The notes beneath the pieces are model-generated. The model did not search any database. It saw nothing but the letters and a program-made list of their open reading frames with translations, and had not been told where the DNA came from. DNA of 64,000 bases from Patescibacteria group bacterium (GTDB lineage Bacteria > Patescibacteriota > Dojkabacteria > JAKAPS01), in assembly GCA_025450075.1 (NCBI GenBank), contig JANWIC010000016.1:2005-66004 (forward strand). The letters run 5' to 3'. Shown here one piece after another: positions 3,372 to 59,288 of this stretch (its first letter is position 1; every line of letters starts with the position of its first letter). Position numbers and translations under genes: made by a program.

Positions 3372-3968
3372 ATGGAGCTATTTTGGAAGATTGCATACTC
3401 ATGTTTGAAGCTATATAATCTCTCCACTATGTCAAACGAAAGAAATATATTACTAACATTAGATTGTGATCGACCCAGAATCCCAGGGGTTTTTAGGACA
3501 CTTGAGAATTTAGGGATTATTACCATGGATAGAAAACCGGTATTCTTTGATGGGTATGTATGTATACCTATTAAAGAAGTTAATATCGGAGCATTTGCAA
3601 CATTAGGTGAGGAAAATGGGATGTTTAACGGAATTGGTGCTGCATTGTGGTTACGGCAAATGGTAGATGTTGTTGCGATAATGCACGACGGCACACAGCT
3701 AATATTTTCACTTTGGGAACAATATTATGAGTTACATAAATTTAATCCAGTAGATGGCAGTTATGATAAGATGGAAAGTAGATATAATTTAACATATGAT
3801 GGCAAGCCATTTTGTATGTCACTTCTTGGAACAATGGGGTTTGATATTGGTGAGGGCTTACAAGCATATACAATTACTGAGCTTTATCTGTATGTGCCGT
3901 TAGATGTAGAATTGTCTCCACTTGAACCAGGTGGTATAATCCCCTTTCCACAAATGGATACTAGCTGA
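3372..3968 (+). CDS. Hypothetical protein (198 aa). An alternative start at 3426 (MSNERN...) is possible. No Shine-Dalgarno sequence precedes either start.
   Basis: ORF track only; no recognisable motif. The 3' end overlaps the following convergent glycosyltransferase gene by 8 nt. Confidence 0.3.
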   Translation: MELFWKIAYSCLKLYNLSTMSNERNILLTLDCDRPRIPGVFRTLENLGIITMDRKPVFFDGYVCIPIKEVNIGAFATLGEENGMFNGIGAALWLRQMVDVVAIMHDGTQLIFSLWEQYYELHKFNPVDGSYDKMESRYNLTYDGKPFCMSLLGTMGFDIGEGLQAYTITELYLYVPLDVELSPLEPGGIIPFPQMDTS

Positions 3969-25878: not shown

Positions 25879-27372
25879 TTGAATTTCCCTATAATCCGTA
25901 CTATAATGCCATTGGCAAATGTATATAATATGGCAATCGAAGCATCCGATCAACAACATAACATCCCCGAAATGCTAATTGTTGCAATACCTGGGAGTGG
26001 TATTACAACTTTGTGTATTATCGGTCCAAAAAGAGGTGATAGTCAGTGTGAAGACGTAATTGTAAAGGCTGTAACTCCAACCGCTCATGCTTGTGGAGTA
26101 ATTGATGTTATCAGCGGAAATAGCGAGGAATATGGTGTATTCCCAGGCACTATTCTTGCAGAACATTTCAGGAATGTTGTTGGCTCATTACCCCATGGTT
26201 TTTGGCAAAATTCACCACGAGACATTCAAGCATATTTAAGAAGAGCATTTGGGGTAGCAGATAAAGACGCATATAGAAGATTTAATACAATTGATGATAA
26301 ACCAATTGAACGTGAAAAAGGATTAGTTGGTGCAGTTGGAACTTTTTTAATTTATTCTCAACTTGAGGGGAAAATTATACGTGCAGAAGTTTCGGCAGGA
26401 GATTGTAGGAGATTAACTATATATCCGTTTACTGAAAGTAATTTGTTTCTTGAAGATGGATATATAAAAGCATGCTGCAGAGAATATCTAAAAGGTATGG
26501 ATTCTGAAGAAGTTGAAGTAATAACACGCGAGTTGCAAGCTGCGCTAAATGAATACTATTACGGACAGGATAAACTTGTTCCATGGATGGAATTATCGGT
26601 AAGAAGATTTATTGCTGCGTGTAAAAAACAGGGGATAAAAGTATTCGAAGGAATTAAACTTCATGAAGATGAAAAAACAGCTATTGCAATAATGAATCAG
26701 TTATTTAAAAATAGAAATCTTGTTGAAACGGCATTCGGCTTTGGTAATATAGAAGAACGTGGAAATGTAAATGTCGAATTAATTGATCGAAATCAGTATA
26801 GATTAGAAATAATGGCATCTGACGGGTTATGGGATTTGTTTCCGGAATCATTAGTTCGCGCAGTACTCCGATCTCCTTTTAGTGTGCAAAAAAAACTCTC
26901 GCTTATCTATGAAATGATCAAAATTGAAAGAGATTTAAGAAAACGGAAAGCAAAAGATGATGATTTTGTGGTGGCAATAACTGAAATCAACCCGTATTTT
27001 AGGCCATATTTAGGAAGCGTTGATGTGCAAGAATTATTAAATCAAAGCAATATTGCATATTATCTTGATGGAATGGTTGTAGATGGTAGAACTATCATGT
27101 ATAACAGTCCTGAATATGATGGATTGGTTGCTCAAGTTATAGAAAAAAGGATACAAAATGTCGAATCAATCAATGAATTAGCAGCTGCAATTGATCGTAT
27201 AGAAATTATTCCAAGTACCTCAACTATATGGCGATTTTTAACAGCAAATGAAGTTATTAACTTAATAAAAATTGCAATAAATGATCCTAAAAGGCGTCAA
27301 GATGCAATTAATGCAATCCCACGATCTTATGGGATAAGGCAGCGTTTTATGGATTTATTAGAAATAGAGTAA
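25879..27372 (+). CDS. Hypothetical two-domain protein. The N-terminal about 320 aa show PP2C-phosphatase-like motifs (…AFGFGN…, LEIMASDGLWDLF); the C-terminal about 180 aa are unknown.
   Basis: IMASDGLWD closely matches the conserved PP2C 'SDG(L/V)WD' motif, preceded by an (R)AFG(D)-like motif. The start codon is 4 nt after the dnaE stop. Confidence 0.35.
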   Translation: MNFPIIRTIMPLANVYNMAIEASDQQHNIPEMLIVAIPGSGITTLCIIGPKRGDSQCEDVIVKAVTPTAHACGVIDVISGNSEEYGVFPGTILAEHFRNVVGSLPHGFWQNSPRDIQAYLRRAFGVADKDAYRRFNTIDDKPIEREKGLVGAVGTFLIYSQLEGKIIRAEVSAGDCRRLTIYPFTESNLFLEDGYIKACCREYLKGMDSEEVEVITRELQAALNEYYYGQDKLVPWMELSVRRFIAACKKQGIKVFEGIKLHEDEKTAIAIMNQLFKNRNLVETAFGFGNIEERGNVNVELIDRNQYRLEIMASDGLWDLFPESLVRAVLRSPFSVQKKLSLIYEMIKIERDLRKRKAKDDDFVVAITEINPYFRPYLGSVDVQELLNQSNIAYYLDGMVVDGRTIMYNSPEYDGLVAQVIEKRIQNVESINELAAAIDRIEIIPSTSTIWRFLTANEVINLIKIAINDPKRRQDAINAIPRSYGIRQRFMDLLEIE

Positions 27373-36404: not shown

Positions 36405-37130
36405 ATGAGTAGTAATGGAGAAGATTTTGGTCAAGATGAAAGAGATCTTTTAATGGACTGTACACATCAAGCAGAAGAAATCATTCGATCTTTTCCTCTT
36501 TGTAACTTGCCCTTTAATTCTTTAGTATTTACAAACTGCTCTGGTGAAAAGATTAAATTTACAAGAGGTAAAGATTCTATTAGAATTCTAATTACAGATT
36601 CTAACGGTCAAGAGAAGGTAAAATTCATAACTTCTACAAAGAATAAACTTCCAATTGTAGCCATAGGAGATGAAGATGTTTTATCCAAAAACCTTGAAGC
36701 ACTTCAAAGCTACTTCTCACGTGACAATAGGATTACAGATTATACAGGCTTACTACCCTTAGATTTTATTCCATCGATTGAAGTAGAAAACTGTGAAGAA
36801 ATTGAAACTGATGAAACCATTATAATTGCAGCACATTATGCATATATGATTGCCTTGCACATTGGGAAAAGGGATGGATATTGTATGCGAATTCCAGGCA
36901 CTTATCAAACAGTAGTATTGCAAAAAATTAACGAAAGATTTGAATTAAAGTTACAAACTTCTGATAAAGTAACTTTGGCAAAGATTGCGTTTTCATTAAA
37001 AGATAATATTATTTGTTCTTTAAATGGTGAGGGAGATATAAATGCCCTATATGAAATATTGGATGATGCTTTAGTATTAAGGATATACTTAGGAGTAAGT
37101 TTAGGCAGAGATGAAATTAATAGAAATTAA
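36405..37130 (+). CDS. Hypothetical cytoplasmic protein (241 aa), first of a tandem pair of unknowns
   Basis: ORF track; no signal peptide and no recognised motif. Divergent from the atp operon. Confidence 0.4.
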   Translation: MSSNGEDFGQDERDLLMDCTHQAEEIIRSFPLCNLPFNSLVFTNCSGEKIKFTRGKDSIRILITDSNGQEKVKFITSTKNKLPIVAIGDEDVLSKNLEALQSYFSRDNRITDYTGLLPLDFIPSIEVENCEEIETDETIIIAAHYAYMIALHIGKRDGYCMRIPGTYQTVVLQKINERFELKLQTSDKVTLAKIAFSLKDNIICSLNGEGDINALYEILDDALVLRIYLGVSLGRDEINRN

Positions 37131-37147
37131 CTATTAGTAATCAAACT

Positions 37148-37858
37148 ATGGGAGAGATTTGTAGTCAAGAATTAGATAATTTAAATTCATGGGAAGCAGC
37201 TGCAATGCAAGGTTTTAAAATATATAACCAAATGAATAAACCCGGTTGTATTGGTACTATTGTGCTACAGGTTCCAGATGCTGAAAGAATAATAACGATT
37301 ACATTAGAAGAAAATCAAGTATATAGTATCATTACCGAGCCTCAAGAAAATAATACGACGTTATTAGTATTTCAATCAAATGGAGTTTCATTTAGTCTTG
37401 TAGAATATGGAGGAAATTTAACAGAATTGCTAGGTGATCTAAAAGAAATAATGACAGGACTTACTTCAACTCCACAACAAGTAAGGAGAAATTCTTTAAG
37501 TGGTCGAGATTTAGATAGAAGAAGGAATCTAAAAAGAGCAATTGCATTAGCAAATAATGCATATTACGCAATAGAGGCATATTCCCTTTTATGGAAGGAA
37601 CATCATGATTGGCCAATTGATTTCCCTTATCTTAAAGGTAAAATACAATTCAGCAATCTTGATAATACGTACAGAATATCATATATAGTAGATGGAAATA
37701 TAGAAGCTTTTTTTGCATTTACAGCTTTTGACAATATCACAGATATGAAAGGTATTCGATTAGGAGAAATATATGGAAATACTGCGGCCATTGAAATTGC
37801 TGTTCATTATTTGTTTGATCAAATATATAATGGTGTCTTAAAGCCATCACTAAATTGA
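37148..37858 (+). CDS. Hypothetical cytoplasmic protein (236 aa), second of the tandem pair; possibly a distant paralogue of the first
   Basis: ORF track; similar length and a loosely similar central segment (IAAHYAYMIALHIG vs ALANNAYYAIEAYSLL). Confidence 0.4.
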   Translation: MGEICSQELDNLNSWEAAAMQGFKIYNQMNKPGCIGTIVLQVPDAERIITITLEENQVYSIITEPQENNTTLLVFQSNGVSFSLVEYGGNLTELLGDLKEIMTGLTSTPQQVRRNSLSGRDLDRRRNLKRAIALANNAYYAIEAYSLLWKEHHDWPIDFPYLKGKIQFSNLDNTYRISYIVDGNIEAFFAFTAFDNITDMKGIRLGEIYGNTAAIEIAVHYLFDQIYNGVLKPSLN

Positions 37859-38656
37859 TTACAAGTTAATCCCTTGTTCTTCTAGCAGTTTTTTCATTTG
37901 ATAACGATATGCCCTGCCAATTTCAATTTGTCTTCCAGCACTTGTTTTAATATTTATCCTGATTCCCATTTTCCCATCAGATAAAGATTCAAGTCCTAAG
38001 ACTTCAGTTTTTCCTAATATAAACGGCTTTGTTTTTTCTTCTTGTTCAATATTTTCACCTGCTTGCTGCATTATGGAAATTATTTGATCAACTGGATTGT
38101 TTGCAGAAATGATAAATGTCATATCAAACATTGACCAATCTTTACTCAGGTTTGTAATTTGCGTGATGGAGCTATTAGAAAATGTAGTGACATTTCCAGA
38201 CAAATCACGGATTGTAATAGTTCGAAGGGTAATATCAATAATTACACCGACAAGCAGCCCAACCTGTACGGTATCCCCTACCCCAAATTGGTCTTGGATA
38301 AGAAAGAAAAAACCTGTAATAATGTCTTTCACCAAAGATTGCGCTCCGAAAGACACAGCAAGTCCAAAAATTCCTGCACTTGCAAGAAGTGGCTGGATAT
38401 CAAAAAAATTATTGAGAAGAATAAAGAAGCCAATGATAATGGCAATTGATATTGCCAAGTTATTCTCAACTTCAATTATTGTTTGTACCCGGCGCTGGAT
38501 TCTAGTTTGCGGTTCATTCTTTTGGATTTGTTTGCGTAAATATATCTTATTTATGACAAGAGCAAATACAATACGGATAATGGAAATGATAGCAACAATG
38601 AGTGCAAGATGGATGATACTAGCTATGAATACGTTTAGTGTAAATACTTTCATTAT
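37859..38656 (-). CDS. mscS: Small-conductance mechanosensitive channel (MscS family). The start at 38656 is preferred over 38707, which overlaps mraY.
   Basis: TM3 pore-helix pattern (..AGIFGLAVSFGAQSLVKDIITGFFFLIQDQFGVGD.V) and the beta-domain motif. Confidence 0.75.
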   Translation of the reverse strand: MMKVFTLNVFIASIIHLALIVAIISIIRIVFALVINKIYLRKQIQKNEPQTRIQRRVQTIIEVENNLAISIAIIIGFFILLNNFFDIQPLLASAGIFGLAVSFGAQSLVKDIITGFFFLIQDQFGVGDTVQVGLLVGVIIDITLRTITIRDLSGNVTTFSNSSITQITNLSKDWSMFDMTFIISANNPVDQIISIMQQAGENIEQEEKTKPFILGKTEVLGLESLSDGKMGIRINIKTSAGRQIEIGRAYRYQMKKLLEEQGINL

Positions 38657-39750
38657 ATTAGTGAAATCCACAATGAAATAACAAGAAAGATCATGGAAAA
38701 GATCCAAAATCGCATAACTACCTTCTCTTCACTCCATCCTAACATCTCAAAATGGTGATGTAAAGGCGCCATTAAAAAGATTTTTTTGTCTAAAAACTGC
38801 TTTGCAAGTTTTTGTAAAATAACAGATGCAATTTCAATAATAAATATAAAGCCTGCAAACAAAAGAATAATTTCCCTGTGCAACAAGATGGCAATAGTTG
38901 CCAACATTGCTCCTAACGCAAGAGATCCTACATCTCCCATCTGAAATCTTGCCGGTTTTATATTAAAATACAAATAGGTTAAAAGAGCACCAATAGTGGT
39001 AGCACATAATTCAGCGATTCTTGGATTATTTAATTGTGTAGCAATAATCATAAAAGCTGCGTATGCACTTAATAATAGCCCTCCTGATAATCCATCCATT
39101 CCATCAGATATATTTACCGCATTTGCCATAAATATAACCATAAAAATCACAACCGGGATTAAAAATATACCGAGGTGAATATAAGTACCTCCAGGAATCC
39201 AAAGAAGTGTCCAATGGATTTTAAAGTACATCCAGAATGCAATTATGCATCCTGCTACAAACTGGACAAGCACTTTCTCATGTGGATGCAATCCTGTTCC
39301 AATTCTTGATCCGAAATGGTAAAACATTGATTTATATGCACTCCATGGAATTAACAGGGCGAAATAGAGGCGTCTAGCAGGTTTTGCATGATGCAGCGCC
39401 AGTTTGATTGTTAACCGAAGTTTTCGTACTGGTCGTTTTCTTCCATAGATATTTAACAGATCATCTAATGCTCCAATAATTGCACAAAGCGTTAATACCG
39501 ATAAAGGCAAAAGTGTATAGCTTCTTGATACATTAAAAATACTTGTGATAATTATAATTGTAAGAATAATGATGACACCTCCCATTATAGGCACCCCCGC
39601 TTTTTCCCGTCTGGAAGGAATTTGCGAGAATGTATCATCGTATTCGCCTGATCGGACAATCTTGTATTTATACAAAAGAGAAGTAATAGGAAATGTAATG
39701 ATAAATGATAAGATTAAAGAACCTAATATGTATGTGAGAAGTCTAAACAT
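38653..39750 (-). CDS. mraY: Phospho-N-acetylmuramoyl-pentapeptide transferase (MraY)
   Basis: ANAVNISDGMDGLSGG and the C-terminal APLHHHFEMLGWSEEKVVMRFWIFS are MraY signatures; about 10 TM segments; 365 aa. It lies far from ftsQAZ. Confidence 0.8.
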   Translation of the reverse strand: MFRLLTYILGSLILSFIITFPITSLLYKYKIVRSGEYDDTFSQIPSRREKAGVPIMGGVIIILTIIIITSIFNVSRSYTLLPLSVLTLCAIIGALDDLLNIYGRKRPVRKLRLTIKLALHHAKPARRLYFALLIPWSAYKSMFYHFGSRIGTGLHPHEKVLVQFVAGCIIAFWMYFKIHWTLLWIPGGTYIHLGIFLIPVVIFMVIFMANAVNISDGMDGLSGGLLLSAYAAFMIIATQLNNPRIAELCATTIGALLTYLYFNIKPARFQMGDVGSLALGAMLATIAILLHREIILLFAGFIFIIEIASVILQKLAKQFLDKKIFLMAPLHHHFEMLGWSEEKVVMRFWIFSMIFLVISLWISLI

Positions 39751-40459
39751 GTGTATTTGTTAAAAATAAAGGCCGACGGATTCCATTATCATTTACTCTT
39801 CTTCGGATTAATTCATTTGGTTGATATTTCAATCTTTCAATCTGATTCCAATCCTGATCTGTTATGGATTTAGTATCATCAGTGATTGTTATCTTCCCCA
39901 TACAAACACCTTTTCCAGTTGAGGATTGAATATATTCGATCTCAGCAACTTTCCCCCCATTTTTTTTAATTGTAGTGATCATGACGACATGTTTTCCACC
40001 TGACATTCTGATTAAATCCATTGGCTTTACCTGTGATACAGGTATCTCTTGACAGTTTATCTTTGAAGTTAAGGTATCGGCATTTAACTTTGCGGTATCT
40101 GGTTTAATTGCATACAAAACCAGCAAGAACGGATTTAAAGTGGGACGTTTAAAAAAAGATTTTGCATGTTTTTGAAGTCTTGAAAGGGTAAACTGTTCAT
40201 AAATATCAAGAACAAGTCCTGAACAGTCTATGCCAATATTATTATCTTTTAATAGTGAATATCCATCCTTTTCAGGATATATTTCCTGTAATTCATTGAG
40301 AACTTTTTGTATTTCTTCTTTTCTTCCTTTTCCTTTGTAAACTCTTCTTTTTAAAGAAATGCTTCCTTTACCGATAAAATATGGAACAGGTATAGATAAA
40401 AACCAATCACATAACTGTTGCAAATCTTGAGGGATTGTTTGCGTATCATCTTGGCTCAT
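39743..40459 (-). CDS. Cytoplasmic NlpC/P60-family cysteine peptidase/amidase (papain-like fold) with an N-terminal about 70-aa extension
   Basis: Catalytic Cys motif GIDCSGLV, a His region KPMDLIRMSGGKHVVMI about 75 aa downstream, no signal peptide. It is the last gene of a three-gene minus-strand operon. Confidence 0.6.
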   Translation of the reverse strand: MSQDDTQTIPQDLQQLCDWFLSIPVPYFIGKGSISLKRRVYKGKGRKEEIQKVLNELQEIYPEKDGYSLLKDNNIGIDCSGLVLDIYEQFTLSRLQKHAKSFFKRPTLNPFLLVLYAIKPDTAKLNADTLTSKINCQEIPVSQVKPMDLIRMSGGKHVVMITTIKKNGGKVAEIEYIQSSTGKGVCMGKITITDDTKSITDQDWNQIERLKYQPNELIRRRVNDNGIRRPLFLTNTHV

Positions 40460-41829
40460 GCGGTATCAATAGTTTTTGTTTTTGCCTGTATTGTTGCAAT
40501 AATGTTGAGGATATTATCATCAATATGTTCCATATCTTTTAATACATTTCCTCTTACACTTATCTTTAAAAAGTCATCTCCTTGCCCTATCATTCTACCC
40601 TCAATAGCCTCCAGTATCAATGCCCTTGATGTTGAATATATTTCATCAATTGCGTAGGCATCTTCCTTTTTTGTTACAGATTCAATATCGTAAAGTCCTC
40701 CATATGATTCAAGAACCTGGAATGGTTTTGCATGATTTCTTACAATTAATGCTGATGCATCAATGGGTTGCGCATTATTCTTGTTATATTGTTCGATATC
40801 AATTGAAAATGGAATCTGTAAAAGTTCTAATAAATTGATGACTGCTAATGGAATCTCTTCATTTTCCAGCTGTAGTTTTGTGAAATCCTGGATGGATGCA
40901 GTTTGTCTTGCATTTATCTCAAGAATATATAACTCTTCTCCGGTAATGGAAAAATCAACTCCAAAAAATCCTCTATACCCTAACGTATAGAAATATTCCC
41001 CTAACAGTTTCGTCAATGCTACTGCCTCTTCTCTTATCTGATCAGTAACTCCCAGTTGATACCAATTGTTTCCGCAAGTTTCTCCCCGAAGAGCTCCAAG
41101 TTCCTGTAAACCCGTCATCTGGTTACACAATCCACCCACATAGGTGCCGTTTATTGTTGCAACACCATTTGTTGTGATGAAATGAAATGCGCATGTTTGG
41201 ACAAACTTCATCATCATATTTGTACGAAAATATTCATTCTTGAATGTATCAAACTCTTCTTTCGAATGAATAAAGAATGTGCTATTTCCAGAATGTCCAA
41301 CATCGAACTGGACAACAAAAGATGAACCCAACTCTTTGACTAATGAGTCAAAATCTACTTCAGAAATACGTTTTAAAATTGCTTTCGGCAGATTATCTCC
41401 AAAGCCACCTTCTTGAAGAAGCTGGTATTGGGTGATTTTGTTTTCAATTTTTCCTGCAATTCTTGCATCCGGATTAAGAACAATATTATCTCCTGAAGCA
41501 ACTTCTAAAGCTCTTGAAGGTTTGAAATACATGAGGTGGGCTTTGTTTCTTGTGTTTTTAGTAATATATTCCTGCACTTTCGAATCTTTTATCAGTTGCA
41601 AAGATGAGGAAAGCTCTGGTTGGGTAAGCATTACTTCTATTCCTCTTTCTTCAAGAAGACGAATTGTGTATGAGTTTTGTCCTGTGATGATATAAAAATG
41701 TCTAAGAAGATTTTCCAATCCAAAAGATCTTTCAATATTTTTTGTCAGATAAAAGATTGGCGAGCCAAGTGTCGCTTTGTTTATCATTTCTATATATTCT
41801 CGTATCATTATATTCCGGTTAAAATACAA
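40456..41829 (-). CDS. ATP-grasp family carboxylate-amine ligase (457 aa, with an N-terminal pre-ATP-grasp region)
   Basis: ATP-grasp C-terminal signature ..YILEINARQTASI.. and the upstream Gly-rich/phosphate-binding region (FVVQFDVGHSGNSTFF). It overlaps both neighbouring genes. Confidence 0.6.
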   Translation of the reverse strand: MYFNRNIMIREYIEMINKATLGSPIFYLTKNIERSFGLENLLRHFYIITGQNSYTIRLLEERGIEVMLTQPELSSSLQLIKDSKVQEYITKNTRNKAHLMYFKPSRALEVASGDNIVLNPDARIAGKIENKITQYQLLQEGGFGDNLPKAILKRISEVDFDSLVKELGSSFVVQFDVGHSGNSTFFIHSKEEFDTFKNEYFRTNMMMKFVQTCAFHFITTNGVATINGTYVGGLCNQMTGLQELGALRGETCGNNWYQLGVTDQIREEAVALTKLLGEYFYTLGYRGFFGVDFSITGEELYILEINARQTASIQDFTKLQLENEEIPLAVINLLELLQIPFSIDIEQYNKNNAQPIDASALIVRNHAKPFQVLESYGGLYDIESVTKKEDAYAIDEIYSTSRALILEAIEGRMIGQGDDFLKISVRGNVLKDMEHIDDNILNIIATIQAKTKTIDTA

Positions 41830-42734
41830 ATGGCAGAATGTATCTCATGATTTTTCTTTGCTTCTTTTAAACCTGCAATTGCTAGGGCACTATCATATGA
41901 TATTTCTTTTTTCTCAAAAGAAAGCATATCTTCTAACGCATCTTGTATCTGGTTATCACGGATTGCATAAGCATCTCCCCCGGTTCGCTTGATTAATTCA
42001 ACCACTTTTTGTTCGTGTGGAGTATAGTATGTTGATACTGCTGTTGCAAGAGAAGAATCAGTTGAAATAATCTCATGTGAAAAATGGTCAGCAATTGGAT
42101 GGATCTTAGTCGTTTGAATGGCATAAAGTGGAGGAATATCATCAAGTCCTGCAACTAATCCTAAAAGTCCAGTCCCTGAACTTATGGGCATACATAAAGC
42201 ATCAACATTTTGAGGCAATTGTTTTTGTATTTCTTTCCCTAAACTTGAATATCCCTCTATGGCATTCGGGTCTTTTGATCCCACAAGATTAATCGCTTGA
42301 TTCTCTTTTGCAAATTGAAAGGCATCTTTTCTTGCGCGTGGAGAATAATGAATTGTGCACAAGTCAGTATGCGTCCCTATTATTTCCAATAATCTTTTCC
42401 TTTTATTTTCATCGGTATGAGAAGAAAGGAAAATATCAAGATATACACGATAAAAAATACAATACATTGCTGCAGATATTGCTGCATTTCCCGATGAAGA
42501 TATGACAAAATTATTTTTCCCTTCTTTGATCCAGTGTTGAAGTTGATAGGAAATGGCTCTATCTTTAAAAGATCCTGAAGGGTTTTGTGTCTCATCTTTT
42601 AAATATATATGATTCAAACCATATGCATGTGCAAGATTGACCGCCTCGTAAAGAGGTGTGTTCCCTTCAGCTGGTAAAGGGAGAGATTGAAAATTATTCG
42701 TAAAGTGTGTAGAATTACTACTATTGTTGACCAT
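41808..42734 (-). CDS. PLP-dependent enzyme, fold type II (Trp-synthase-beta / threonine-synthase / cysteine-synthase superfamily)
   Basis: PLP-lysine motif ..LKDETQNPSGSFKDRA.. preceded by GNTPLY; a glycine-rich loop ISSGTGLLGL; 308 aa. Confidence 0.7.
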   Translation of the reverse strand: MVNNSSNSTHFTNNFQSLPLPAEGNTPLYEAVNLAHAYGLNHIYLKDETQNPSGSFKDRAISYQLQHWIKEGKNNFVISSSGNAAISAAMYCIFYRVYLDIFLSSHTDENKRKRLLEIIGTHTDLCTIHYSPRARKDAFQFAKENQAINLVGSKDPNAIEGYSSLGKEIQKQLPQNVDALCMPISSGTGLLGLVAGLDDIPPLYAIQTTKIHPIADHFSHEIISTDSSLATAVSTYYTPHEQKVVELIKRTGGDAYAIRDNQIQDALEDMLSFEKKEISYDSALAIAGLKEAKKNHEIHSAICILTGI

Positions 42735-42760
42735 TATTTCGTATTATACAATTTTTACCT

Positions 42761-42931
42761 ATGAAAGACAAAACAGTTTTATGCCCTGAATGCCAAAATA
42801 CCACAGAACTTGAAAATGAAATTCGAGTTGGTGACATCGTTGAATGTCCTCATTGCGGATCAGAACTTCGGGTCGCTGATTTTGATTCTGATGGAAAGAT
42901 CCTTGTAAAGGTTATCCAGGAAGAGAAATAA
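42761..42931 (+). CDS. Small (56 aa) 4-Cys zinc-ribbon protein with an acidic C-terminal tail, LysW/ArgW (amino-group carrier protein)-like. It is not in the supplied ORF track because it is shorter than 60 aa.
   Basis: Own translation: MKDKTVLCPECQNTTELENEIRVGDIVECPHCGSELRVADFDSDGKILVKVIQEEK. The CPEC..(E.LEN.E)..V.C..CG.EL.V layout parallels my recollection of Thermus LysW. It is divergently transcribed from the PLP/ATP-grasp/NlpC-P60 operon. Confidence 0.4.
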   Translation: MKDKTVLCPECQNTTELENEIRVGDIVECPHCGSELRVADFDSDGKILVKVIQEEK

Positions 42932-43012
42932 TACACGGAACTATCATAATCCTATTTCTTTGCAATCACAGCAATCTTTAAGTATACTGCTGAATAATTT
43001 ACCATAGATATT

Positions 43013-45775
43013 TTGGGTCATATTCAACCGCAAATAGCACAGATGGAAACACAAGCAATTCCAGAAGGAATGCTTTACGGTACCTCTACACTTCTCGAAG
43101 CATTTCTACAAAATAATGGTGTTGGAACACTTCCAGTTTTTATTTTAGCAGCAGTACAAGCTGGCATAGTTAATTCTGAAGAAGAAGGTATACGCCGTGC
43201 AGTTGAAATTCTATCTCGATTTCAACCCAATGTTGATGTTTTAACTAAATACGGCTCACACTATAGTGATAACTGGCATCCACAAGGTGTTCGAGAATTA
43301 ATTAATACGATACATAGAAGAGAAGGTGAAAAAGTCCTCTATCCTCAAATTATTGCTTCAAGGGTTGGAGCAATTTCCCATGAATGTATTGCCAATTTGC
43401 TCACAGGTAATCTTGCACAATATCCCTCTCCTATTCAAACATCCCACATGCAATCAGAACTTCCAGGATTTGAATCTTTAAAATGTAATAGCATATTTGA
43501 TAGTAATCCAAATATATATGAGGATGCAATAACTAGAAATAATTCTGTATCCGATAAACATTTAGAACTTATTAATGATCATCGCCTTGCAATTCTTGCT
43601 GCGCTTTCTATATCTCCTCCTGATTATTGGAGAGCGAATGAAGCAGCTCGAGAATTAGCTTATCTTCTTATGCCAATATTCCATATTGTAAATAGAAAGC
43701 AGAAAAATCCTATTCAAGAAATACTTCGTCTTACCCATTCATTGGGAGGTATGCTCCCCAGTGTCATGATGAATCTTGCGAATGCCGCTGTTGCATATTA
43801 TGGCACTGATGCATTTAGAATCCCTCGAGCAATATTTGCCGAAGTACCTGTTTTATCGCAGCCAGGTGTTCGTGCGGGTAGAGCAGATCTAGTTGAGGTT
43901 GTTGCAATCAATGGACGTAAGCCTTCTTCTTCCGAAATAGAGCTAATTCGAGCATTTGCAAAAACAGCACGCGGATCGCTAGGATCTATTCATCAAAAAC
44001 TTAAAGAATTGCTCGGTGCGGATATCACATGGGAAATTTCTGACAATAAGTTTGCAATTGGTGATAACAATCCTCGATTCCGTCATCTTGCAATTCCTCG
44101 GGATGCAATAGCAAATGGGCCATTTGGTAAACACGAAATTCAAGTTAAAGCATATCATACTTTAGCAACTGTTGATGTTGCGATGGTATTAAACGATATG
44201 GAAAATCCATTCGGTAATGGTGCAATTAGTTGTGTACATCTACTTTATCGAATTGGAGATACCCTAGATGAAGCTGAAAAGATTACTTTTCAAATGAGTT
44301 CAGAAGAAATGCGAGAGTTTTTCAGAATTCATTATGGTAATCGACATAGTCGTGCAGAGCTTGAAGCTGTTTTTCGCATGTGGGGAGGTGTATTGCTTGC
44401 TGAAGCAAGAAGATATCTTGGTGTAAGTAATATTGTTAGACGTCCTAAGGAGAGCCCTGAATCAACAGGTCAAATGCCACTCATTAATGATGAAACTACT
44501 GGGAAATTTACAAGATTAATTGAAGAATCTCGTGAATTTTATCATCCTGAGAAATTAGAAAGACTTTTTCGTATTGAAGGGAGAAGAAGAAGCGGTGAAC
44601 CTAAATTGGTAATGGATTATAATTTGCTACTCCAATTAATTGTAGCTGGGAAAATTCAAGTGAGTGAAGATTTCGGTCCTTTAATAGGCGGCTTTATCCA
44701 TTGTCCACTTCATGAATTTGTACTTGCCGATCAAGGTTTACCACCTAAACTTGATGAATCTCCTTCATTTCATATTTTTGGCAATGGAAGATGGCATTGT
44801 TTTAGTTGTAATGCAGGAGGATCTATAGATCCTACTTCATTTCCTCCAGGTTGGAAAGGTGGAACAATTAAAGTTCGTACAAGAAAATCAAAAAGACAAC
44901 ATGCAATTACAAATGAAATGTTGGATGAAAGTCAAGTCGCTGTTTTGAATGATCTTTTTTTGATTCTCCAAGAGATATATAAATCCTCTACAAATGCACA
45001 AAACTATTTACAAGAAATCAGAGGATTAACTCCTGAGATATTAGCAAAATATGGAGTTGGATATTGGCCACCTGGTGCTCAGGGAAAAATATTAGAAAAG
45101 CTGATTGAGCAGGGATATACAATGGAGGATATTGATCGTGCAGGAATTAGGGTGCTTGTAAAACCAAAAAGATATAGAGATGAGGAGGGAAATGTATTTA
45201 CTTCTACCCCATACTATTGGTTTCCACTTAATGGTACAGTAGTTTTTAAGATCGGAGATGGTAAGGATGGTGATATGAATTTGTATGGAAGGAATGCATA
45301 TAAGACGCCAAAATCTTTATGGAGAAAAAATCCAAGAACTGGAAAGCCACAAAGGCCACGCGAACATTGGAAACTACAAACAAAAGTTCCTCATGGAGTA
45401 TTTAATCAACAAGTACTTAATGGCGAAATAAAATCAAAAAAAGTTGTCGTATTTGAAGCCGTAATTGATGCGTTGTCATATATGATTTTAACTGGAGAAG
45501 AAGATGTAGTAGCTATCATTGGTACACTAAATCATTATGCAGTAAGAAAGCTAAAAGATCTTGCATTACAAGGTGTACAAATTTGCCTTGCACTGGATAA
45601 CGACAGTACCGGGCAACTGACGATAAAACGGATTATTGCTGAATTAGAATCTTATGGGTGTGGAGAAATGGTATTTAATTATACTGAAATTTTAAAACAG
45701 CTTTTTCAAGAGCTTTCTTCTTTGAAAGATTTAAATGAGGTCCTTCTATTCCGAATTCAAGATCGACGGTCTTGA
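43013..45775 (+). CDS. Large (920 aa) protein. The C-terminal about 370 aa form a DnaG-type primase core (CHC2-like zinc finger plus TOPRIM); the N-terminal about 550 aa are an uncharacterised domain.
   Basis: Zinc-finger segment CPLHEFVLADQGLPPKLDESPSFHIFGNGRWHCFSCNAGGS (compare DnaG CPFH.E.TPSF.V.....YHCFGCG..GN); TOPRIM Glu (VVVFEAVIDALSYM) and DxD (CLALDNDSTGQ). It appears GC-richer than the flanking genes. Confidence 0.6.
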   Translation: MGHIQPQIAQMETQAIPEGMLYGTSTLLEAFLQNNGVGTLPVFILAAVQAGIVNSEEEGIRRAVEILSRFQPNVDVLTKYGSHYSDNWHPQGVRELINTIHRREGEKVLYPQIIASRVGAISHECIANLLTGNLAQYPSPIQTSHMQSELPGFESLKCNSIFDSNPNIYEDAITRNNSVSDKHLELINDHRLAILAALSISPPDYWRANEAARELAYLLMPIFHIVNRKQKNPIQEILRLTHSLGGMLPSVMMNLANAAVAYYGTDAFRIPRAIFAEVPVLSQPGVRAGRADLVEVVAINGRKPSSSEIELIRAFAKTARGSLGSIHQKLKELLGADITWEISDNKFAIGDNNPRFRHLAIPRDAIANGPFGKHEIQVKAYHTLATVDVAMVLNDMENPFGNGAISCVHLLYRIGDTLDEAEKITFQMSSEEMREFFRIHYGNRHSRAELEAVFRMWGGVLLAEARRYLGVSNIVRRPKESPESTGQMPLINDETTGKFTRLIEESREFYHPEKLERLFRIEGRRRSGEPKLVMDYNLLLQLIVAGKIQVSEDFGPLIGGFIHCPLHEFVLADQGLPPKLDESPSFHIFGNGRWHCFSCNAGGSIDPTSFPPGWKGGTIKVRTRKSKRQHAITNEMLDESQVAVLNDLFLILQEIYKSSTNAQNYLQEIRGLTPEILAKYGVGYWPPGAQGKILEKLIEQGYTMEDIDRAGIRVLVKPKRYRDEEGNVFTSTPYYWFPLNGTVVFKIGDGKDGDMNLYGRNAYKTPKSLWRKNPRTGKPQRPREHWKLQTKVPHGVFNQQVLNGEIKSKKVVVFEAVIDALSYMILTGEEDVVAIIGTLNHYAVRKLKDLALQGVQICLALDNDSTGQLTIKRIIAELESYGCGEMVFNYTEILKQLFQELSSLKDLNEVLLFRIQDRRS

Positions 45776-47181
45776 ATGGCAATAGATTGGGAAAATGGAT
45801 GAATCAATGGTCCGTTCATTGTGGGTATGTAAGGATTTTGCCAAAAGCTAATTATCCTTTTCCTGCGAAGAAATTCAACAACAAATAGCATCATTTCTAG
45901 CATTGCAACTTTTTCTCCTACACAGCTTCTTGACCCCCCTCCAAATGCAGAGAACGGTGGTTCATATCTTTTTCCGTGAGGATGTGTAGTTAGTCTTTGC
46001 TGATACCTTTCAAAATGAAATGAATCTGGATCAGGATAATATTCCTGCATTCGCTGTGTTCTACCAGGCATTAAAAATACAAGTGTCTTTTCGGCTACCC
46101 GATATAACTGAATTGATCCATCTTTGGTATCTACTGGAATAATCATTTCATGTATTGTTTTTCTAGGAAGAGGTGAAACTTGGGGATGGAGACGTAGCGT
46201 TTCATGAATGCATGCTGCAAGTGTTGGCAAATTTGCCAGTGAGTCAGGAGTACATGGTTCACCTGGATGATATTTATCTTCTATTTCTCTTTCTAAATGG
46301 TGATATGCATCAGGATGCCTTTCAAGTTCCTTAAATAAAAATGTTAAAGTATTTGTTGTCGTATCATGGGCAGCATAAATTACCATTAGCAAATTATTTA
46401 TGATTTCTTCATCTGTTAATTTCCGATTCTGTTCAAAGGGATACTGAACTTGCATTAATTGGCCAAGTATATCATCCTGAGGTGGCATTTCTCTTCTTTT
46501 ATCAATAATTCCTTTAAGGATCTCTACGAGCTTTTCACGAGATTGCATTGCATAGCGGTATGGTAAAAGCGGATTATTTGGTTGTCTAAAAATATCGAAT
46601 GCTGCAAGAGAAAAGGAATGCCAAAGTTTTTTCAACTTTGCAACAAGTAACTTATCTTCTCCTTCTGTTGAAAGTGCAAGATAAATTGCATATTTGAACG
46701 TAATATCTTGCGCAAGTTTCAAAATATTTACTCTTCCGGAAAGTGAAGTGAAAGCTTCAGCCATACATTGAAGAAGAAAATTACAATCTTCCTGTTGAAA
46801 TTTTCTGGGAGTGAGTCTTTCCAATACTGCATGTCGCAATTGGTCATGTATTTCTCCATCAGAAGTCAGTACACCTTGTGGAAACATTTCTCTTGCAATA
46901 ATATGGTATCCCCCACCTTCTCCAAAGATAAAATCGGATGAGTGAGTCAGAACGTACTTTTCTGCTTCTGCACCTAATAGAACTAGCGCAGGTTCTCCAT
47001 CGATCCAGTTGACCCAAAATGCATTACTTCCAGATTTTTCTTGTAATGAGGCTGGAAAACTATTTGGCCTTGCAATTAATTGATAAAATTGCAAAAAAGA
47101 GAATAAATCATGGCAAAAATTTGGAGCATCTCTCGCATCTAATGGACCTGTTTGAGTGAGCTGTTCGTTATCTTCATACAT
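45757..47181 (-). CDS. Cytochrome P450 monooxygenase
   Basis: Heme-thiolate loop FGGGSRSCVGEKVA, I-helix AAHDTT, ExxR (ETLRLHP) and PERF-like FHFERY; 474 aa. The 3' end overlaps the primase-like gene by 19 nt (convergent). Confidence 0.88.
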   Translation of the reverse strand: MYEDNEQLTQTGPLDARDAPNFCHDLFSFLQFYQLIARPNSFPASLQEKSGSNAFWVNWIDGEPALVLLGAEAEKYVLTHSSDFIFGEGGGYHIIAREMFPQGVLTSDGEIHDQLRHAVLERLTPRKFQQEDCNFLLQCMAEAFTSLSGRVNILKLAQDITFKYAIYLALSTEGEDKLLVAKLKKLWHSFSLAAFDIFRQPNNPLLPYRYAMQSREKLVEILKGIIDKRREMPPQDDILGQLMQVQYPFEQNRKLTDEEIINNLLMVIYAAHDTTTNTLTFLFKELERHPDAYHHLEREIEDKYHPGEPCTPDSLANLPTLAACIHETLRLHPQVSPLPRKTIHEMIIPVDTKDGSIQLYRVAEKTLVFLMPGRTQRMQEYYPDPDSFHFERYQQRLTTHPHGKRYEPPFSAFGGGSRSCVGEKVAMLEMMLFVVEFLRRKRIISFWQNPYIPTMNGPLIHPFSQSIAIQDRRS

Positions 47182-47183
47182 TG

Positions 47184-48734
47184 TTATTCAAAAGTCCAGA
47201 TCTTATGGTTAATATTGAAAGCAATCGCATTTACAATGGCAAAAGTAAACCAGACTTGCATAACATACAGGGTAGAAAAGGCGCTGTACTGGAGAAGTAA
47301 TCCAGCAAAAGCAGCAATAAACCCAATAAATACAGTTTTTGTATACACATCTGTTTTCTTCTTGAGTGCATTGAAAACGTTGAATATTATTACAAGTATG
47401 AATACCGCGAATGCTGAAAACCCAATAATTCCATTTTCTGTAAGTATTTCCAGATACTCGTTATTTACAATTCTCCAACCGATATCTTGTCCATACACAG
47501 ATGGGATCTGATATGGATTTGGCGCTTCATAAGGCCCGAAACTACCAGTACCTATTCCAAGTATTGGATGGGAACTAAAATAGTGAAGAGCTGCATTGCT
47601 AGTTATCGTCCTGTCTGAATCTTCTAAGGCAGTAGCGCGTTGCGTTAAGGTCTCAAGGGTTATTGGAGAATGGGTATAATGCAGAACAAAAATAAAGCCG
47701 GTAATAATAACTGTTAAAAGAATAGCACTCGTGATTATAACTTTTACATTAAGAATCCTTTTAATATTAAACAGAATAACTAATCCAACGGAAAAAGCTG
47801 CAGAATACCATGCTCCCCGGGAAAATGTCATTAATAAGTTAATGAGGCATAAGATAAATACAAGCGTACTTATAAAGATTAGCCTGAATGGAATACTCCT
47901 CTGAAAGAGTTGTCTTTGCTTTCTTCCCAACGATACAACCAGAACTGAAAGAGAAAGAGATACGGGAATAATGAGAAAATTTCCCCAGAATTGTGGTTCC
48001 GATTCTGTTGCCTGTACCCGTGGAAATCCAAATACTACTTTTGTATAGCCTTCACGAAGTCCTGATATTGCAGTAGGCAAGTTTAATGTCCCCGCGATAA
48101 ATTGAAAGACACCATATAGACAGACAATGAGTGATACACCAAGGAGAGCCCAAACTGTTTTTCGCAAAATATCTTTTGAGACAAAGAGATTGGAAATAAG
48201 AATGTAAGTAAAAAAGATAAAAAGATCAAATGAAAGCACAAAAAGACTTCTTGACTTGTTTATCGCATCAACAATAGAGGCAATTGTAATAATACTAAAA
48301 AGAATAAGAATATAAAATGAAGCGTCTTTTTTTATTCGTATTCCTAAAATATGATTTTTCTTATCGGTAAATATCACATAAAATGTGTATGCAATGAAGG
48401 TGAGTACAGTAAATACCTGAGTAAGCCGTAAGTTAAATGACGCATATGTTAGTGCTCCAATTCGTTCAAAAGGTAAAAAAAAGGCAATGATAGGAATTCC
48501 CATTTCTGGTCTTTCAAGTACTTTGCTTACTAAATAGATAATAAAGATTGCTCCAAGAATTATCGGAAATAATAAAAGGAAATAAAGCGCATTGCTTTTT
48601 GGAGAAAAATAATTGATTAAGAGAATACAAACAATTAATAGTAATGATACTTCAAGAAAATATTTTCTTTTCGTTGTTAATATAGTCGAGTTCCCCAGGT
48701 CTTGAAGAATTTTTCTGATATTATTTGCTGCCAT
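47184..48734 (-). CDS. O-antigen-ligase / Wzy-like polytopic membrane protein
   Basis: More than 10 TM segments; ...MTFSRGAWYSAAFSVGL... resembles the O-antigen ligase (Wzy_C) periplasmic-loop motif. It stops 3 nt before the P450 start, so the two are probably co-transcribed. Confidence 0.55.
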   Translation of the reverse strand: MAANNIRKILQDLGNSTILTTKRKYFLEVSLLLIVCILLINYFSPKSNALYFLLLFPIILGAIFIIYLVSKVLERPEMGIPIIAFFLPFERIGALTYASFNLRLTQVFTVLTFIAYTFYVIFTDKKNHILGIRIKKDASFYILILFSIITIASIVDAINKSRSLFVLSFDLFIFFTYILISNLFVSKDILRKTVWALLGVSLIVCLYGVFQFIAGTLNLPTAISGLREGYTKVVFGFPRVQATESEPQFWGNFLIIPVSLSLSVLVVSLGRKQRQLFQRSIPFRLIFISTLVFILCLINLLMTFSRGAWYSAAFSVGLVILFNIKRILNVKVIITSAILLTVIITGFIFVLHYTHSPITLETLTQRATALEDSDRTITSNAALHYFSSHPILGIGTGSFGPYEAPNPYQIPSVYGQDIGWRIVNNEYLEILTENGIIGFSAFAVFILVIIFNVFNALKKKTDVYTKTVFIGFIAAFAGLLLQYSAFSTLYVMQVWFTFAIVNAIAFNINHKIWTFE

Positions 48735-54045: not shown

Positions 54046-55470
54046 TTGGTATCTGCTATGTCAAAGTTTTTACGTGAAAAAATTCAACTAATTCTTGCTC
54101 TGATGCTAATCTGCTCAGTAATTGGCTTTTCATTAGCAGGGACACCGCATGGTCATGTGAAAGGAGCAAGCGCACTTTCCATCCCATTTGTCGCATCTAT
54201 TGATACGATGAAAGAAAGTAGAGATACTGAAACGTTTCCACTTACATTTACACAGATTGCGGATGATGTGAATCTTTCATCTTCACTGTATGCCAACTAT
54301 ATCACAGTTGATACTCATTGGGATTATCCTAATTACGCACTTTCCTGGGTAAAAGCGATTCGCGCTGCAGGAAAACATGTTTGGTTTCGTATGGCTCCAA
54401 ACCAATGGGAGAATAATAATGGTGTAACAGGAATAATGACTCCAAGTGCATATGAGAGTGCCCTTCAAACCTTTATCACATCTAATCCAGGACTTTTCCA
54501 ATCAGGCGACATTTTCGATCCTTGTCCTGAACCGGAAAATGGGCATTATTGGGTAAGTACATATGGATCTCAATGGAGCTGGCATGCTCCAAATGCAGCT
54601 ACTGCAGATTTTAATCAATTTATCCGTACGACATCTGATGTTGCCGACAGTGCATTTAACCAAATCGGAGTACATGGAGTAATCACATCTATTCGATCTA
54701 CCAATTCATTTTTTGCAACGCATCCGGAAGATTTAGAGCAGGCAACAGTTGATAAGTTTGGTCTGATTACTTTTGATTCCTATCCGGAAAGTACCACAAC
54801 TGATCCTGCAACAGCAACGAATTTACGCATTTCGGAAATCCAGCAAGTAGAAAATACCTGGCATGTGCCAATTGTACTCGGAGAGGTCGGGTATAGCAAT
54901 GCAGTTGCAGTAGATGATGTAACACAAGAATCTGTTGTTAAAGCAGAACTACAAGGTATTGCGGCTCTCCCATATATTATTGGAATGAACTATTGGGTTG
55001 GGGCGGGAACAAACAATTCGGGAGGATATACCCATATCTTTGCCGGAAGTAATGGGAACTGGTCTCTTCGTCCAGCAGCAGCAGATGTCGCAAGTTTTTA
55101 CGCTTCACAACAGCCTGTTGTCACTTCTGCTACACCTCCAATTACTCAAACAATTCCCGACATTACTGCTCCTCAATCACAATTAACATTAAGCCCCCCT
55201 ATCACTCCAAGTATTAAGAATAAGGTTGAAACCTCAACAGCAATACCTCCTACAATTTCTCCCTCCATTGTTGCAACTATTCTTCCCTCTCCACAGATAA
55301 CGGAGAAACCGGTTCAAAAAGTGCAATTAACGGGAAAGAAAAAAGCTAAAATCATTACTAAACATAATCACAAATTTACCACAGTTCAGGATGTACAAAG
55401 TTTTGAAGAATCCTTTCTTGGAAATATCCTCCATATGATAGAATCAGTATTGACCAATGGAACGAAATGA
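54046..55470 (+). CDS. Secreted/anchored protein: N-terminal signal/TM, a TIM-barrel-like putative glycoside hydrolase domain (candidate nucleophile in PIVLGEVGYS), and a Pro/Thr/Ser-rich C-terminal region
   Basis: N-terminal hydrophobic segment; GEVG-type motif typical of clan GH-A nucleophiles; low-complexity P/T/S stretch (TPPITQTIPDITAPQSQLTLSPPITPSI..). Confidence 0.35.
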   Translation: MVSAMSKFLREKIQLILALMLICSVIGFSLAGTPHGHVKGASALSIPFVASIDTMKESRDTETFPLTFTQIADDVNLSSSLYANYITVDTHWDYPNYALSWVKAIRAAGKHVWFRMAPNQWENNNGVTGIMTPSAYESALQTFITSNPGLFQSGDIFDPCPEPENGHYWVSTYGSQWSWHAPNAATADFNQFIRTTSDVADSAFNQIGVHGVITSIRSTNSFFATHPEDLEQATVDKFGLITFDSYPESTTTDPATATNLRISEIQQVENTWHVPIVLGEVGYSNAVAVDDVTQESVVKAELQGIAALPYIIGMNYWVGAGTNNSGGYTHIFAGSNGNWSLRPAAADVASFYASQQPVVTSATPPITQTIPDITAPQSQLTLSPPITPSIKNKVETSTAIPPTISPSIVATILPSPQITEKPVQKVQLTGKKKAKIITKHNHKFTTVQDVQSFEESFLGNILHMIESVLTNGTK

Positions 55471-59262: not shown

Positions 59263-59288
59263 CAAGAAAGTTATATTTTTCTTTCTTG
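59263..59288. terminator. Inverted repeat CAAGAAAG-(10 nt)-CTTTCTTG between convergent genes; a possible bidirectional terminator that overlaps the last codons of the minus-strand gene
   Basis: 8-bp perfect stem read directly; there is a T-run in the loop region. Confidence 0.3.

Follow-up and report, generated by a model that had tools for sequence, protein, structure and literature searches.

LysW-like zinc-ribbon proteins of Patescibacteria with an invariant C-terminal lysine, encoded beside a PLP enzyme in a peptidoglycan-precursor neighbourhood: a possible carrier or scaffold family

What could a zinc-ribbon protein of only 56 amino acids (aa) do beside the genes of cell wall synthesis in a bacterium of the Patescibacteria? 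The open reading frame (ORF) in question lies in a stretch of 64,000 nucleotides (nt) from contig JANWIC010000016.1 (assembly GCA_025450075.1), called the window below; coordinates refer to the window unless a related locus (L001, L002 and so on) is named. A first-pass annotation had translated this ORF by hand, likened its product to the amino-group carrier proteins LysW and ArgW, and offered as an alternative that it served a primase-like gene downstream. The computed translation of 42761-42931 on the forward strand (ATG at 42761, TAA at 42929-42931) was MKDKTVLCPECQNTTELENEIRVGDIVECPHCGSELRVADFDSDGKILVKVIQEEK followed by the stop, exactly the peptide that had been written by hand. The ORF is a real, conserved gene, and its product belongs to a distinct family, in which a LysW-like ribbon ends in an invariant Lys with an acidic residue two or three positions before it.

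To collect the family, phmmer was run exhaustively over 1.84 billion representative proteins, and 139 matches were obtained. The short ones (49-78 aa) overwhelmingly ended in [I/V/L][I/V/L]-E-E-E-K, and real LysW proteins, which end in EDWGE, ranked below these K-tailed proteins. Only C8, C11, C29, C32 and K56 were invariant in an alignment of 41 sequences (A1), with E54 nearly so. When 5.8 billion proteins were searched with a family profile, 1,215 clusters were retrieved at E<=1e-5, and the terminal Lys was present in all 110 newly listed matches (64 EEEK, 40 DEGK, 4 EEGK, 1 QEEK and 1 ELEK), that is, in all 151 members inspected (41/41 and 110/110). The window protein itself matched the family hidden Markov model with E=7.5e-25. 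Two divergent variants of 110-126 aa (L009 and L023, Table 1) have lost the EEE run and kept the terminal Lys, as has a shorter one in L018; since such variants still end in K, it is the Lys that is conserved, and the position before it may be E, G, I or M. It had been suspected earlier that a terminal Lys meant a different chemistry, and the invariance of this residue throughout the family lends weight to that suspicion.

Every organism named for these sequences was a member of the Patescibacteria. In the databases the proteins were unlabelled or hypothetical, or carried the misnomers LysW, RpoP, Elf1, ribosomal protein L37AE/L43A and 'sulfonate ABC transporter'. A literature search found no description of the K-tailed zinc-ribbon family, including in the Lipocone paper and in a paper on pseudomurein (PMC11915815).

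The window protein was strongly acidic, with an isoelectric point (pI) of 4.5 and a net charge of -6. No competing ORF of at least 40 aa overlapped its gene on the opposite strand, and a search of 42300-43300 against Rfam gave no RNA family match. The start codons of the zinc-ribbon gene and of a divergent gene for a pyridoxal 5'-phosphate (PLP) enzyme were only 26 nt apart, so each of the two candidate promoters falls inside the other gene. Both came from a consensus scan and are weak evidence, the one upstream of the zinc-ribbon gene being no more frequent than in shuffled sequence.

How far does the likeness to LysW go? The two CxxC knuckles and the resemblance to the LysW zinc ribbon were upheld by a match to the Pfam domain Zn_ribbon_LysW (PF21344; E=1.4e-11, 44.3 bits against a gathering score of 27). 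The top matches of solved structure were LysW of Thermococcus (5k2m_E, E=3.8e-5) and of Thermus (3wwl_A, E=3.9e-4), the printed alignment with the latter reproducing the Thermus sequence that the first-pass annotation had quoted. When the K-tailed family profile was aligned by hhalign with a profile of genuine EDWGE-tailed LysW, a probability of 99.3% was obtained over 51 columns. Homology to the globular domain of LysW is thereby shown, and this part of the LysW/ArgW label stands, although the domain, structure and profile matches all ended before the C-terminus. The part that implied an orthologue did not: the curated model NF041070 gave 34.9 against a cut-off of 75, with the match ending at model position 51 of 57, and TIGR01206 gave 30.1 against 53.2, ending at position 38 of 54. 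Both matches ended short of the C-terminal motif, so that the comparison with known families was significant for the LysW domain and below cut-off for the full-length models. Since both NCBIfam models failed and [E/D]-E-[E/G]-K stands where LysW has its EDWGE tail, the protein is not an orthologue of LysW or ArgW. True LysW proteins from the same search carried the EDWGE terminus, whereas the window protein ended in VIQEEK, with about 4 residues beyond the last beta-strand compared with about 10 in LysW.

The enzymes which accompany LysW were also missing. Domains of the LysZ/Y/J/K type (AA-kinase, semialdehyde-dehydrogenase, class-III aminotransferase and M20 deacylase) were found in none of the window ORFs scanned, which were those of at least 100 aa not nested in a longer ORF, minus 3372-3968. 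The gene lists of related loci likewise contained no LysZ/ArgB, LysY/ArgC, LysJ/ArgD or LysK/ArgE domains.

Four other genes were joined into one operon by overlapping start and stop codons, in the order PLP enzyme, ATP-grasp ligase, hydrolase and MraY, with an MscS gene coming next. The PLP enzyme and ATP-grasp genes shared 1 nt (TAATG), the ATP-grasp and hydrolase genes met in ATGA, the hydrolase and MraY genes overlapped by 8 nt, and MraY and MscS met in TAATG; the packing was very tight across 38640-42763. No defence-system match was given by PADLOC for four genes of the cluster, and the rest of the window was ordinary housekeeping (UvrA/B, FtsQ/A/Z, GatA/B, DnaE, F-ATPase and ribonucleotide reductase).

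The PLP enzyme, which the first-pass annotation had not considered, turned out to be the tightest partner of the zinc ribbon. Its best NCBIfam and PDB relatives were threonine synthases, far below the family cut-offs, and the PLP-lysine motif SFKDR together with the SSGN and SSG loops was kept in 29 orthologues. The ATP-grasp gene was located about 950 nt from the start of the zinc-ribbon ORF, with the PLP enzyme gene lying between, in agreement with the distance of about 1 kb estimated before. The ATP-grasp was not a ligase of the LysX type: no RimK or LysX model matched it at E<=0.01, PF02655 was the only Pfam match, and LysX and RimK were absent from the top 50 Foldseek matches of its AlphaFold2 (AF2) model, which were PurK, biotin carboxylase, PurT and PurD. 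Judged from this model, the partner ligase is PurK/biotin-carboxylase-like rather than RimK/LysX-like; these folds are generic and give no pointer to its substrate. A search of PDB sequences returned only a 57-residue match, to BesA.

For the hydrolase, C79, H157 and S179 were invariant in alignment A3, and weak matches to PF00877 and to Amidase_6 were obtained in 9 and 4 of the 14 family members, respectively. The assignment to NlpC/P60 was made because of the invariant Cys/His motifs and these weak Pfam matches. The PDB profile search gave only a 17-residue match to LytE (E=0.26), and the single-sequence structure model (predicted local distance difference test score, pLDDT, 38.6) was not usable.

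Is this arrangement peculiar to one contig? In the closest homologous loci (L001, L002 and L004, proteins 46-64% identical) the zinc ribbon was divergent from the PLP enzyme, which was followed by the ATP-grasp, and the order continued with the hydrolase, MraY and MscS where the contig was long enough. A scan of 185,579 species-representative genomes (GTDB), seeded with the ATP-grasp profile, gave 19 loci, all from Patescibacteria (Dojka-, Sacchari-, Magasanik- and Spechtbacteria) and with a best ATP-grasp identity of 36%; the zinc ribbon was beside the PLP enzyme in 10/10 loci having both that enzyme and the upstream region. Another scan, of metagenomes and seeded with an alignment of 22 zinc-ribbon sequences, gave 24 true loci. 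The PLP enzyme adjoined the zinc ribbon in all 19 that had upstream sequence, the ATP-grasp was present in the 11 of 11 reaching past the PLP enzyme, and the hydrolase in 6 of the 7 reaching further. Exact-protein look-ups added five further contexts, and all five agreed on the PLP-enzyme linkage. In total, about 35 informative loci showed the zinc ribbon head-to-head with the PLP enzyme, usually followed by ATP-grasp, NlpC/P60-like hydrolase and MraY.

The gene order of the window recurred in L002, L011, L013, L025, L026 and others. MraY came after the hydrolase in the window, L002, L011, L013, L017, L019-L022, L053 and L054, and in L018 after a gap of 1.4 kb. In L054 a single ORF directly upstream of MraY encoded both the ATP-grasp and the NlpC/P60-like domain as a fusion, and this Rosetta-stone link shows that the two enzymes act together. 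The lineage with DEGK ends had another order, namely ATP-grasp, hydrolase, MraY, an arginyltransferase-like gene, a MurC/Mpl-like ligase, the zinc ribbon on the opposite strand, the PLP enzyme and a MurD-like ligase. The two Mur ligases flanked the zinc-ribbon/PLP pair in L053, L054, L055 and the P0202 contig, and MurB was directly upstream in L002. In L046 (926-3584) the zinc ribbon was co-directional with the ATP-grasp, 6 nt upstream of it, and still adjoined a divergent PLP enzyme. Across these loci the zinc ribbon is tied first to the PLP enzyme and next to the ATP-grasp/NlpC-P60 pair, in a peptidoglycan-precursor neighbourhood of Patescibacteria.

Set beside LysW and ArgW (Thermus thermophilus 3wwl, Thermococcus kodakarensis 5k2m, Sulfolobus 3vpb), the K-tailed proteins share the four-Cys zinc-ribbon globular domain, the small size (about 55 aa), the acidity, the strictly conserved C-terminal residue, and the genomic coupling to an ATP-grasp ligase and an amide hydrolase. 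In contrast, they end in Lys, as [E/D]-E-[E/G]-K, on a tail about 5 residues shorter, where LysW ends in Glu, as EDWGE. The ATP-grasp is of another clade than RimK/LysX, and the hydrolase is NlpC/P60-like, whereas LysK of the LysW system is an M20 enzyme. LysZ, LysY and LysJ are absent; the obligate partner is the threonine-synthase-like enzyme; the context is one of MraY, Mur ligases and MurB instead of amino-acid biosynthesis, and the K-tailed family is confined to the Patescibacteria.

What, then, would such a protein do? The reading that we tentatively prefer is that the zinc ribbon is a LysW-derived small acidic carrier or scaffold of Patescibacteria, whose working end is a C-terminal Lys and not a Glu. 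In the lysine displayed by the -Glu-Lys end, the alpha-amine would be blocked, with the epsilon-amine and the alpha-carboxylate both free. This would be the same display as in LysW-gamma-lysine, the product-loaded and last carrier-bound state of the classical pathway, and from this sameness it is proposed that the carrier may already bear its lysine when it is made. The PLP enzyme would carry out beta- or gamma-replacement on or through this exposed epsilon-amine, or on an amino acid joined to the amine. Precedents for this step are CysM, which uses the terminus of CysO, and SbnA, for which glutamate serves as amine nucleophile. The NlpC/P60-like amidase would free the modified residue, as LysK does, and the amide it cuts would be made by the ATP-grasp, either in reloading the carrier as LysX does or in ligating the product. 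Such a product, say a diamino acid of unusual kind or a residue for cross-bridges, could then enter the UDP-N-acetylmuramoyl (UDP-MurNAc)-peptide/MraY pathway. The charges of the partners support this reading, the carrier being acidic and the hydrolase basic, as with LysW and its partners. It is also supported by the homology to LysW, the invariant terminal Lys, the linkage to PLP enzyme, ATP-grasp and hydrolase, the overlapping genes of the operon, the fusion in L054 and the cell-wall context.

Several points weigh against a carrier. With about 4 residues past the last strand, the tail has little length with which to enter a buried active site. The part of lysine as incoming nucleophile is a guess, given that a fold-type-II PLP enzyme normally requires its own substrate to have a free alpha-amine; the carrier chemistry as a whole is something we infer. 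In at least one locus, L020, the ATP-grasp, hydrolase and MraY occurred while 5.8 kb of downstream sequence contained neither a zinc-ribbon nor a PLP gene, and since the pair is lacking there, the ligase and amidase may work without a carrier; in L046 no hydrolase was detected next to or downstream of the ATP-grasp. Gene neighbourhood is, moreover, weaker evidence in tiny, compact genomes than in large ones.

A more specific form of the carrier reading, in which a pre-loaded lysine carrier builds a diamino acid for the wall, is speculative and should be regarded as improbable. Here the Nα-protected terminal Lys would be alkylated at its epsilon-amine by the PLP enzyme, to give either a unit for cross-bridges or a lysinoalanine-type diamino-dicarboxylic acid that would stand in for diaminopimelate. 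The amidase would release this product, the ATP-grasp would recharge the carrier with free lysine, and the product would join UDP-MurNAc-peptide synthesis just upstream of MraY.

The zinc ribbon might instead dock on the PLP enzyme as a regulatory or structural subunit, with its terminal Lys plugging or gating an active or allosteric site and its tail undergoing no covalent chemistry. This is unlikely, yet it has to be taken seriously, as the PLP enzyme is the one universal neighbour and stands head-to-head with the zinc ribbon, the short tail would suit a subunit, and L020 holds the ATP-grasp/hydrolase pair without the ribbon. On the other side, an invariant last residue after a variable penultimate one is typical of chemically active termini (LysW, ubiquitin-like proteins, Pup, S6), and the ribbon descends from a covalent carrier. 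The co-directional ribbon 6 nt before the ATP-grasp in L046, and the variant between hydrolase and MraY in L018, also speak against a bond with the PLP enzyme only.

It is a doubtful proposal, too, that the ATP-grasp modifies the zinc ribbon as its substrate or tag and that the NlpC/P60-like enzyme undoes or processes this modification. The modification could be RimK-like or graspetide-like, with amino acids added or a Glu/Asp-Lys lactam closed, or the tail could be ligated to a target amine. The presence of the ATP-grasp in 11/11 extended loci, the ligase-amidase fusion in L054 and the acidic residue kept two or three positions before K would all fit a tag, and small-peptide/ATP-grasp systems are a known theme (Iyer et al. 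2009, Mol Biosyst 5:1636). However, the universally linked PLP enzyme is given no role by a tag, the MraY/Mur context is left unexplained, the ATP-grasp belongs to neither the RimK nor the graspetide type, and the folded zinc-ribbon 'leader' differs by its high conservation from the leaders of peptides made on ribosomes and modified after translation (RiPPs). A graspetide/RiPP precursor was considered separately and rejected, for the ATP-grasp is of another type, the 'leader' is conserved and folded where a variable one would be expected, and there is only one conserved Lys, whereas a graspetide core has repeated Thr/Ser/Lys and Asp/Glu residues that form rings.

A canonical LysW/ArgW carrier for lysine or arginine biosynthesis is very improbable, for while the Pfam LysW-domain and top PDB matches and the nearby ATP-grasp and hydrolase speak for it, the failed NCBIfam models, the lack of EDWGE or a terminal Glu, an ATP-grasp that is not LysX/RimK and scanned ORFs free of LysZ/Y/J/K domains stand against it, so that it is refuted at the level of family membership. 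There is next to no chance that the ribbon is a detached zinc-binding module of the 920-aa Toprim/DnaG-like protein encoded downstream on the same strand, whose listed ORF starts with TTG at 43013, 81 nt past the zinc-ribbon stop as had been stated before: that protein bears its own DnaG-type CHC2 finger (CPLH-x28-CFSC, aa 564-599), its gene has its own promoter-like site in the consensus scan, and no homologue of it was found in the 24 loci L001-L024 and no Toprim gene beside the zinc ribbon in other contexts. Where the earlier alternative had been that the ribbon serves this primase-like gene, co-occurrence in related loci puts it with the ATP-grasp operon. A detached DnaG zinc-binding domain was rejected as well, the ribbon being C4 and not CHC2, with no co-occurrence elsewhere.

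The CHC2 finger of the 920-aa protein is preceded by an unexplained stretch of about 560 aa at the N-terminus, and the primase part of the protein matched the PADLOC 'RTasDnaG-like' DRT model (E=4.5e-18). Next to its gene was a cytochrome P450 gene, unusual for a reduced, small chromosome of the Patescibacteria type, followed by a Wzy_C/IctB-like membrane protein. In the syntenic locus L002 the Wzy_C-like gene was shared and the P450 was not, and the position filled in the window by the 920-aa gene and the P450 was held by MurB; the 920-aa gene may be an insertion. Elsewhere in the window, ORFs of 236-497 aa without Pfam match were observed at 36405-37130 (+), 37148-37858 (+), 54046-55470 (+), 59271-60158 (-) and 25879-27372 (+).

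Some further genes were noted in the related loci. The arginyl/leucyl-tRNA-protein transferase-like (ATE_C-like) protein, encoded after MraY and before the MurC/Mpl-like ligase in DEGK-tailed loci, could be a Fem-like transferase on the wall precursor or could act on a protein terminus. A small gene of 169-173 aa was present between the PLP enzyme and the ATP-grasp in five loci (Table 1); the window has no such gene. The members from L004, L007, L009 and L023 grouped by BLAST, that of L004 having a hydrophobic N-terminus and weak matches to class-I methyltransferases (CARME, Methyltransf_31), while the 173-aa gene of L025 had no Pfam match and was grouped by position and size only. In L012, L013 and L024 the zinc-ribbon gene was separated from the PLP gene by an unrelated gene of about 180 aa, whose product is membrane-anchored and acidic. 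An ATP-grasp paralogue (about 500 aa, about 36% identical) without zinc-ribbon, PLP or hydrolase genes was found in L005/L008 (Dojkabacteria JAOAGR010000010.1), L014 and L015. In L005/L008 it was directly upstream of a PGA_cap (CapA-like) gene, an association which may hint that this ATP-grasp family handles glutamate-type substrates.

Table 1. Location of the zinc-ribbon gene, its signals and partners in the window, and of further features in the window and in related loci
Feature	Location	Strand	Evidence or remark
Acidic zinc-ribbon protein, LysW-like globular domain, tail ...VIQEEK	window 42761-42931 (including stop)	+	translation, PF21344, hhalign
First zinc knuckle, C8-P-E-C11	window 42782-42793	+	invariant columns in A1; codons checked
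Second zinc knuckle, C29-P-H-C32	window 42845-42856	+	invariant columns in A1; codons checked
C-terminal E54-E55-K56, K56 proposed as reactive or attachment residue	window 42920-42928	+	K56 invariant, E54 nearly invariant
Promoter-like site TTGAAA-17-TAGAAT, 46 nt upstream of zinc-ribbon ATG, inside 5' end of PLP-enzyme gene	window 42687-42715	+	consensus scan, 10/12 matches
Promoter-like site TTGTCT-17-TATAAT for divergent PLP/ATP-grasp operon, overlapping first zinc-ribbon codons	window 42743-42771	-	consensus scan, 10/12
Threonine-synthase-like fold-type-II PLP enzyme, 308 aa, head-to-head with zinc-ribbon gene	window 41808-42734	-	PF00291, 6.6e-48
ATP-grasp ligase, 450 aa	window 40456-41808	-	PF02655; AF2 model pLDDT 82
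Basic NlpC/P60-like cysteine hydrolase (GIDCSG...H), 238 aa, pI 9.2	window 39743-40459	-	motifs, weak Pfam matches
MraY (phospho-MurNAc-pentapeptide transferase)	window 38653-39750	-	TIGR00445, 199 bits against cut-off 192
Toprim/DnaG-like protein, 920 aa	window 43013-45775	+	CHC2 finger aa 564-599, Toprim aa 810-890
Cytochrome P450 gene	window 45757-47181	-	PF00067, E=7e-51
Wzy_C/IctB-like membrane protein, beside P450	window 47184-48734		
PGA_cap protein, 20 kb away	window 62910-63860	-	
Fused ORF, ATP-grasp aa 50-386 and NlpC/P60-like aa 515-751	L054 13045-15369	-	746-aa called gene, open frame 774 aa
Divergent zinc-ribbon variant, acidic N-terminal extension, ribbon split by ~40-residue insert, ends EPSDMIK	L009 5772-6170	-	
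Divergent zinc-ribbon variant, acidic N-terminal extension, ribbon split by ~40-residue insert, ends EPSDMMK	L023 5996-6340	-	
Short split-ribbon variant ending ...TLNEK, between hydrolase and MraY	L018 3822-4037	+	
Arginyl/leucyl-tRNA-protein transferase-like protein, 216-222 aa	L053 11640-12308	-	ATE_C; NCBIfam arginyltransferase E ~1e-8
Arginyl/leucyl-tRNA-protein transferase-like protein, 216-222 aa	L055 10023-10673	+	ATE_C; NCBIfam arginyltransferase E ~1e-8
Small gene (169-173 aa) between PLP enzyme and ATP-grasp	L004 9490-10008		
Small gene (169-173 aa) between PLP enzyme and ATP-grasp	L007 710-1246		
Small gene (169-173 aa) between PLP enzyme and ATP-grasp	L009 7205-7723		
Small gene (169-173 aa) between PLP enzyme and ATP-grasp	L023 7309-7824		
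Small gene (169-173 aa) between PLP enzyme and ATP-grasp	L025 6497-7018		

To return to the proposed carrier, are comparable systems known? A carrier with a fold-type-II PLP enzyme and a dedicated hydrolase is found in CysO-CysM-Mec+ of Mycobacterium tuberculosis and in related sulfur-carrier/PLP systems, where the C-terminus of the carrier is the nucleophile for the PLP enzyme acting on a phospho-amino acid and the hydrolase releases the product. There, however, CysO has a beta-grasp fold (ThiS/MoaD) and a GG-thiocarboxylate end, the hydrolase is a JAMM metalloprotease, and no ATP-grasp takes part. An ATP-grasp and NlpC/P60-like pair, encoded here by overlapping genes and fused in L054, has its likeness in the glutathionylspermidine synthetase/amidase Gss of E. 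coli, in which an ATP-grasp-type ligase is fused to a cysteine amidase of the CHAP/NlpC-P60 superfamily and the same amide is made and broken. The domain order and the sequence families differ, and the substrates of Gss are small molecules, with no protein carrier or PLP enzyme. In the peptide aminoacyl-tRNA ligase (PEARL) systems for 3-thiaglutamate and ammosamides, and in RimK-S6, a small molecule is built or extended on the C-terminus of a ribosomal peptide and then cleaved, leaving a scaffold that can be charged anew. The proposed working site here is likewise the last residue of a chain made on the ribosome, whereas PEARLs are LanB-like and tRNA-dependent and RimK adds Glu only; we know of none of these systems with a LysW-fold scaffold or a threonine-synthase-like enzyme. 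To our knowledge, amino-group carriers are known only from lysine and arginine biosynthesis (Thermus, archaea) and from a few secondary-metabolite pathways of Streptomyces, and all have a C-terminal Glu.

In the pseudomurein clusters of methanogens, an uncharacterised ATP-grasp lies immediately beside an MraY-family transferase and is suspected to be a stem-peptide ligase (PMC11915815). Those clusters resemble the present one in having an ATP-grasp beside an MraY-family gene in a wall-precursor cluster; they are archaeal, with no zinc-ribbon protein, PLP enzyme or NlpC/P60 partner reported (the words 'zinc', 'NlpC' and 'carrier' are absent from that paper), and are likened here by gene position and not by homology.

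What is new in the present case is a family homologous to these carriers, comprising more than 1,000 clusters, with a different invariant end (Lys), different partner enzymes and a wall-precursor neighbourhood. The Patescibacteria are a very large radiation of bacteria, ultra-small and of reduced biosynthetic capacity, and the K-tailed family may well mark a carrier-protein step in their wall synthesis. If the more specific version with a diamino acid product were true, it would be the first carrier-protein-dependent step in the synthesis of peptidoglycan precursors, and the first amino-group carrier with a genetically encoded first substrate. If the zinc ribbon is a carrier at all, the carrier-protein principle would be extended to new chemistry, and the family would point to an unrecognised, lineage-specific step of wall synthesis, which may be a selective target.

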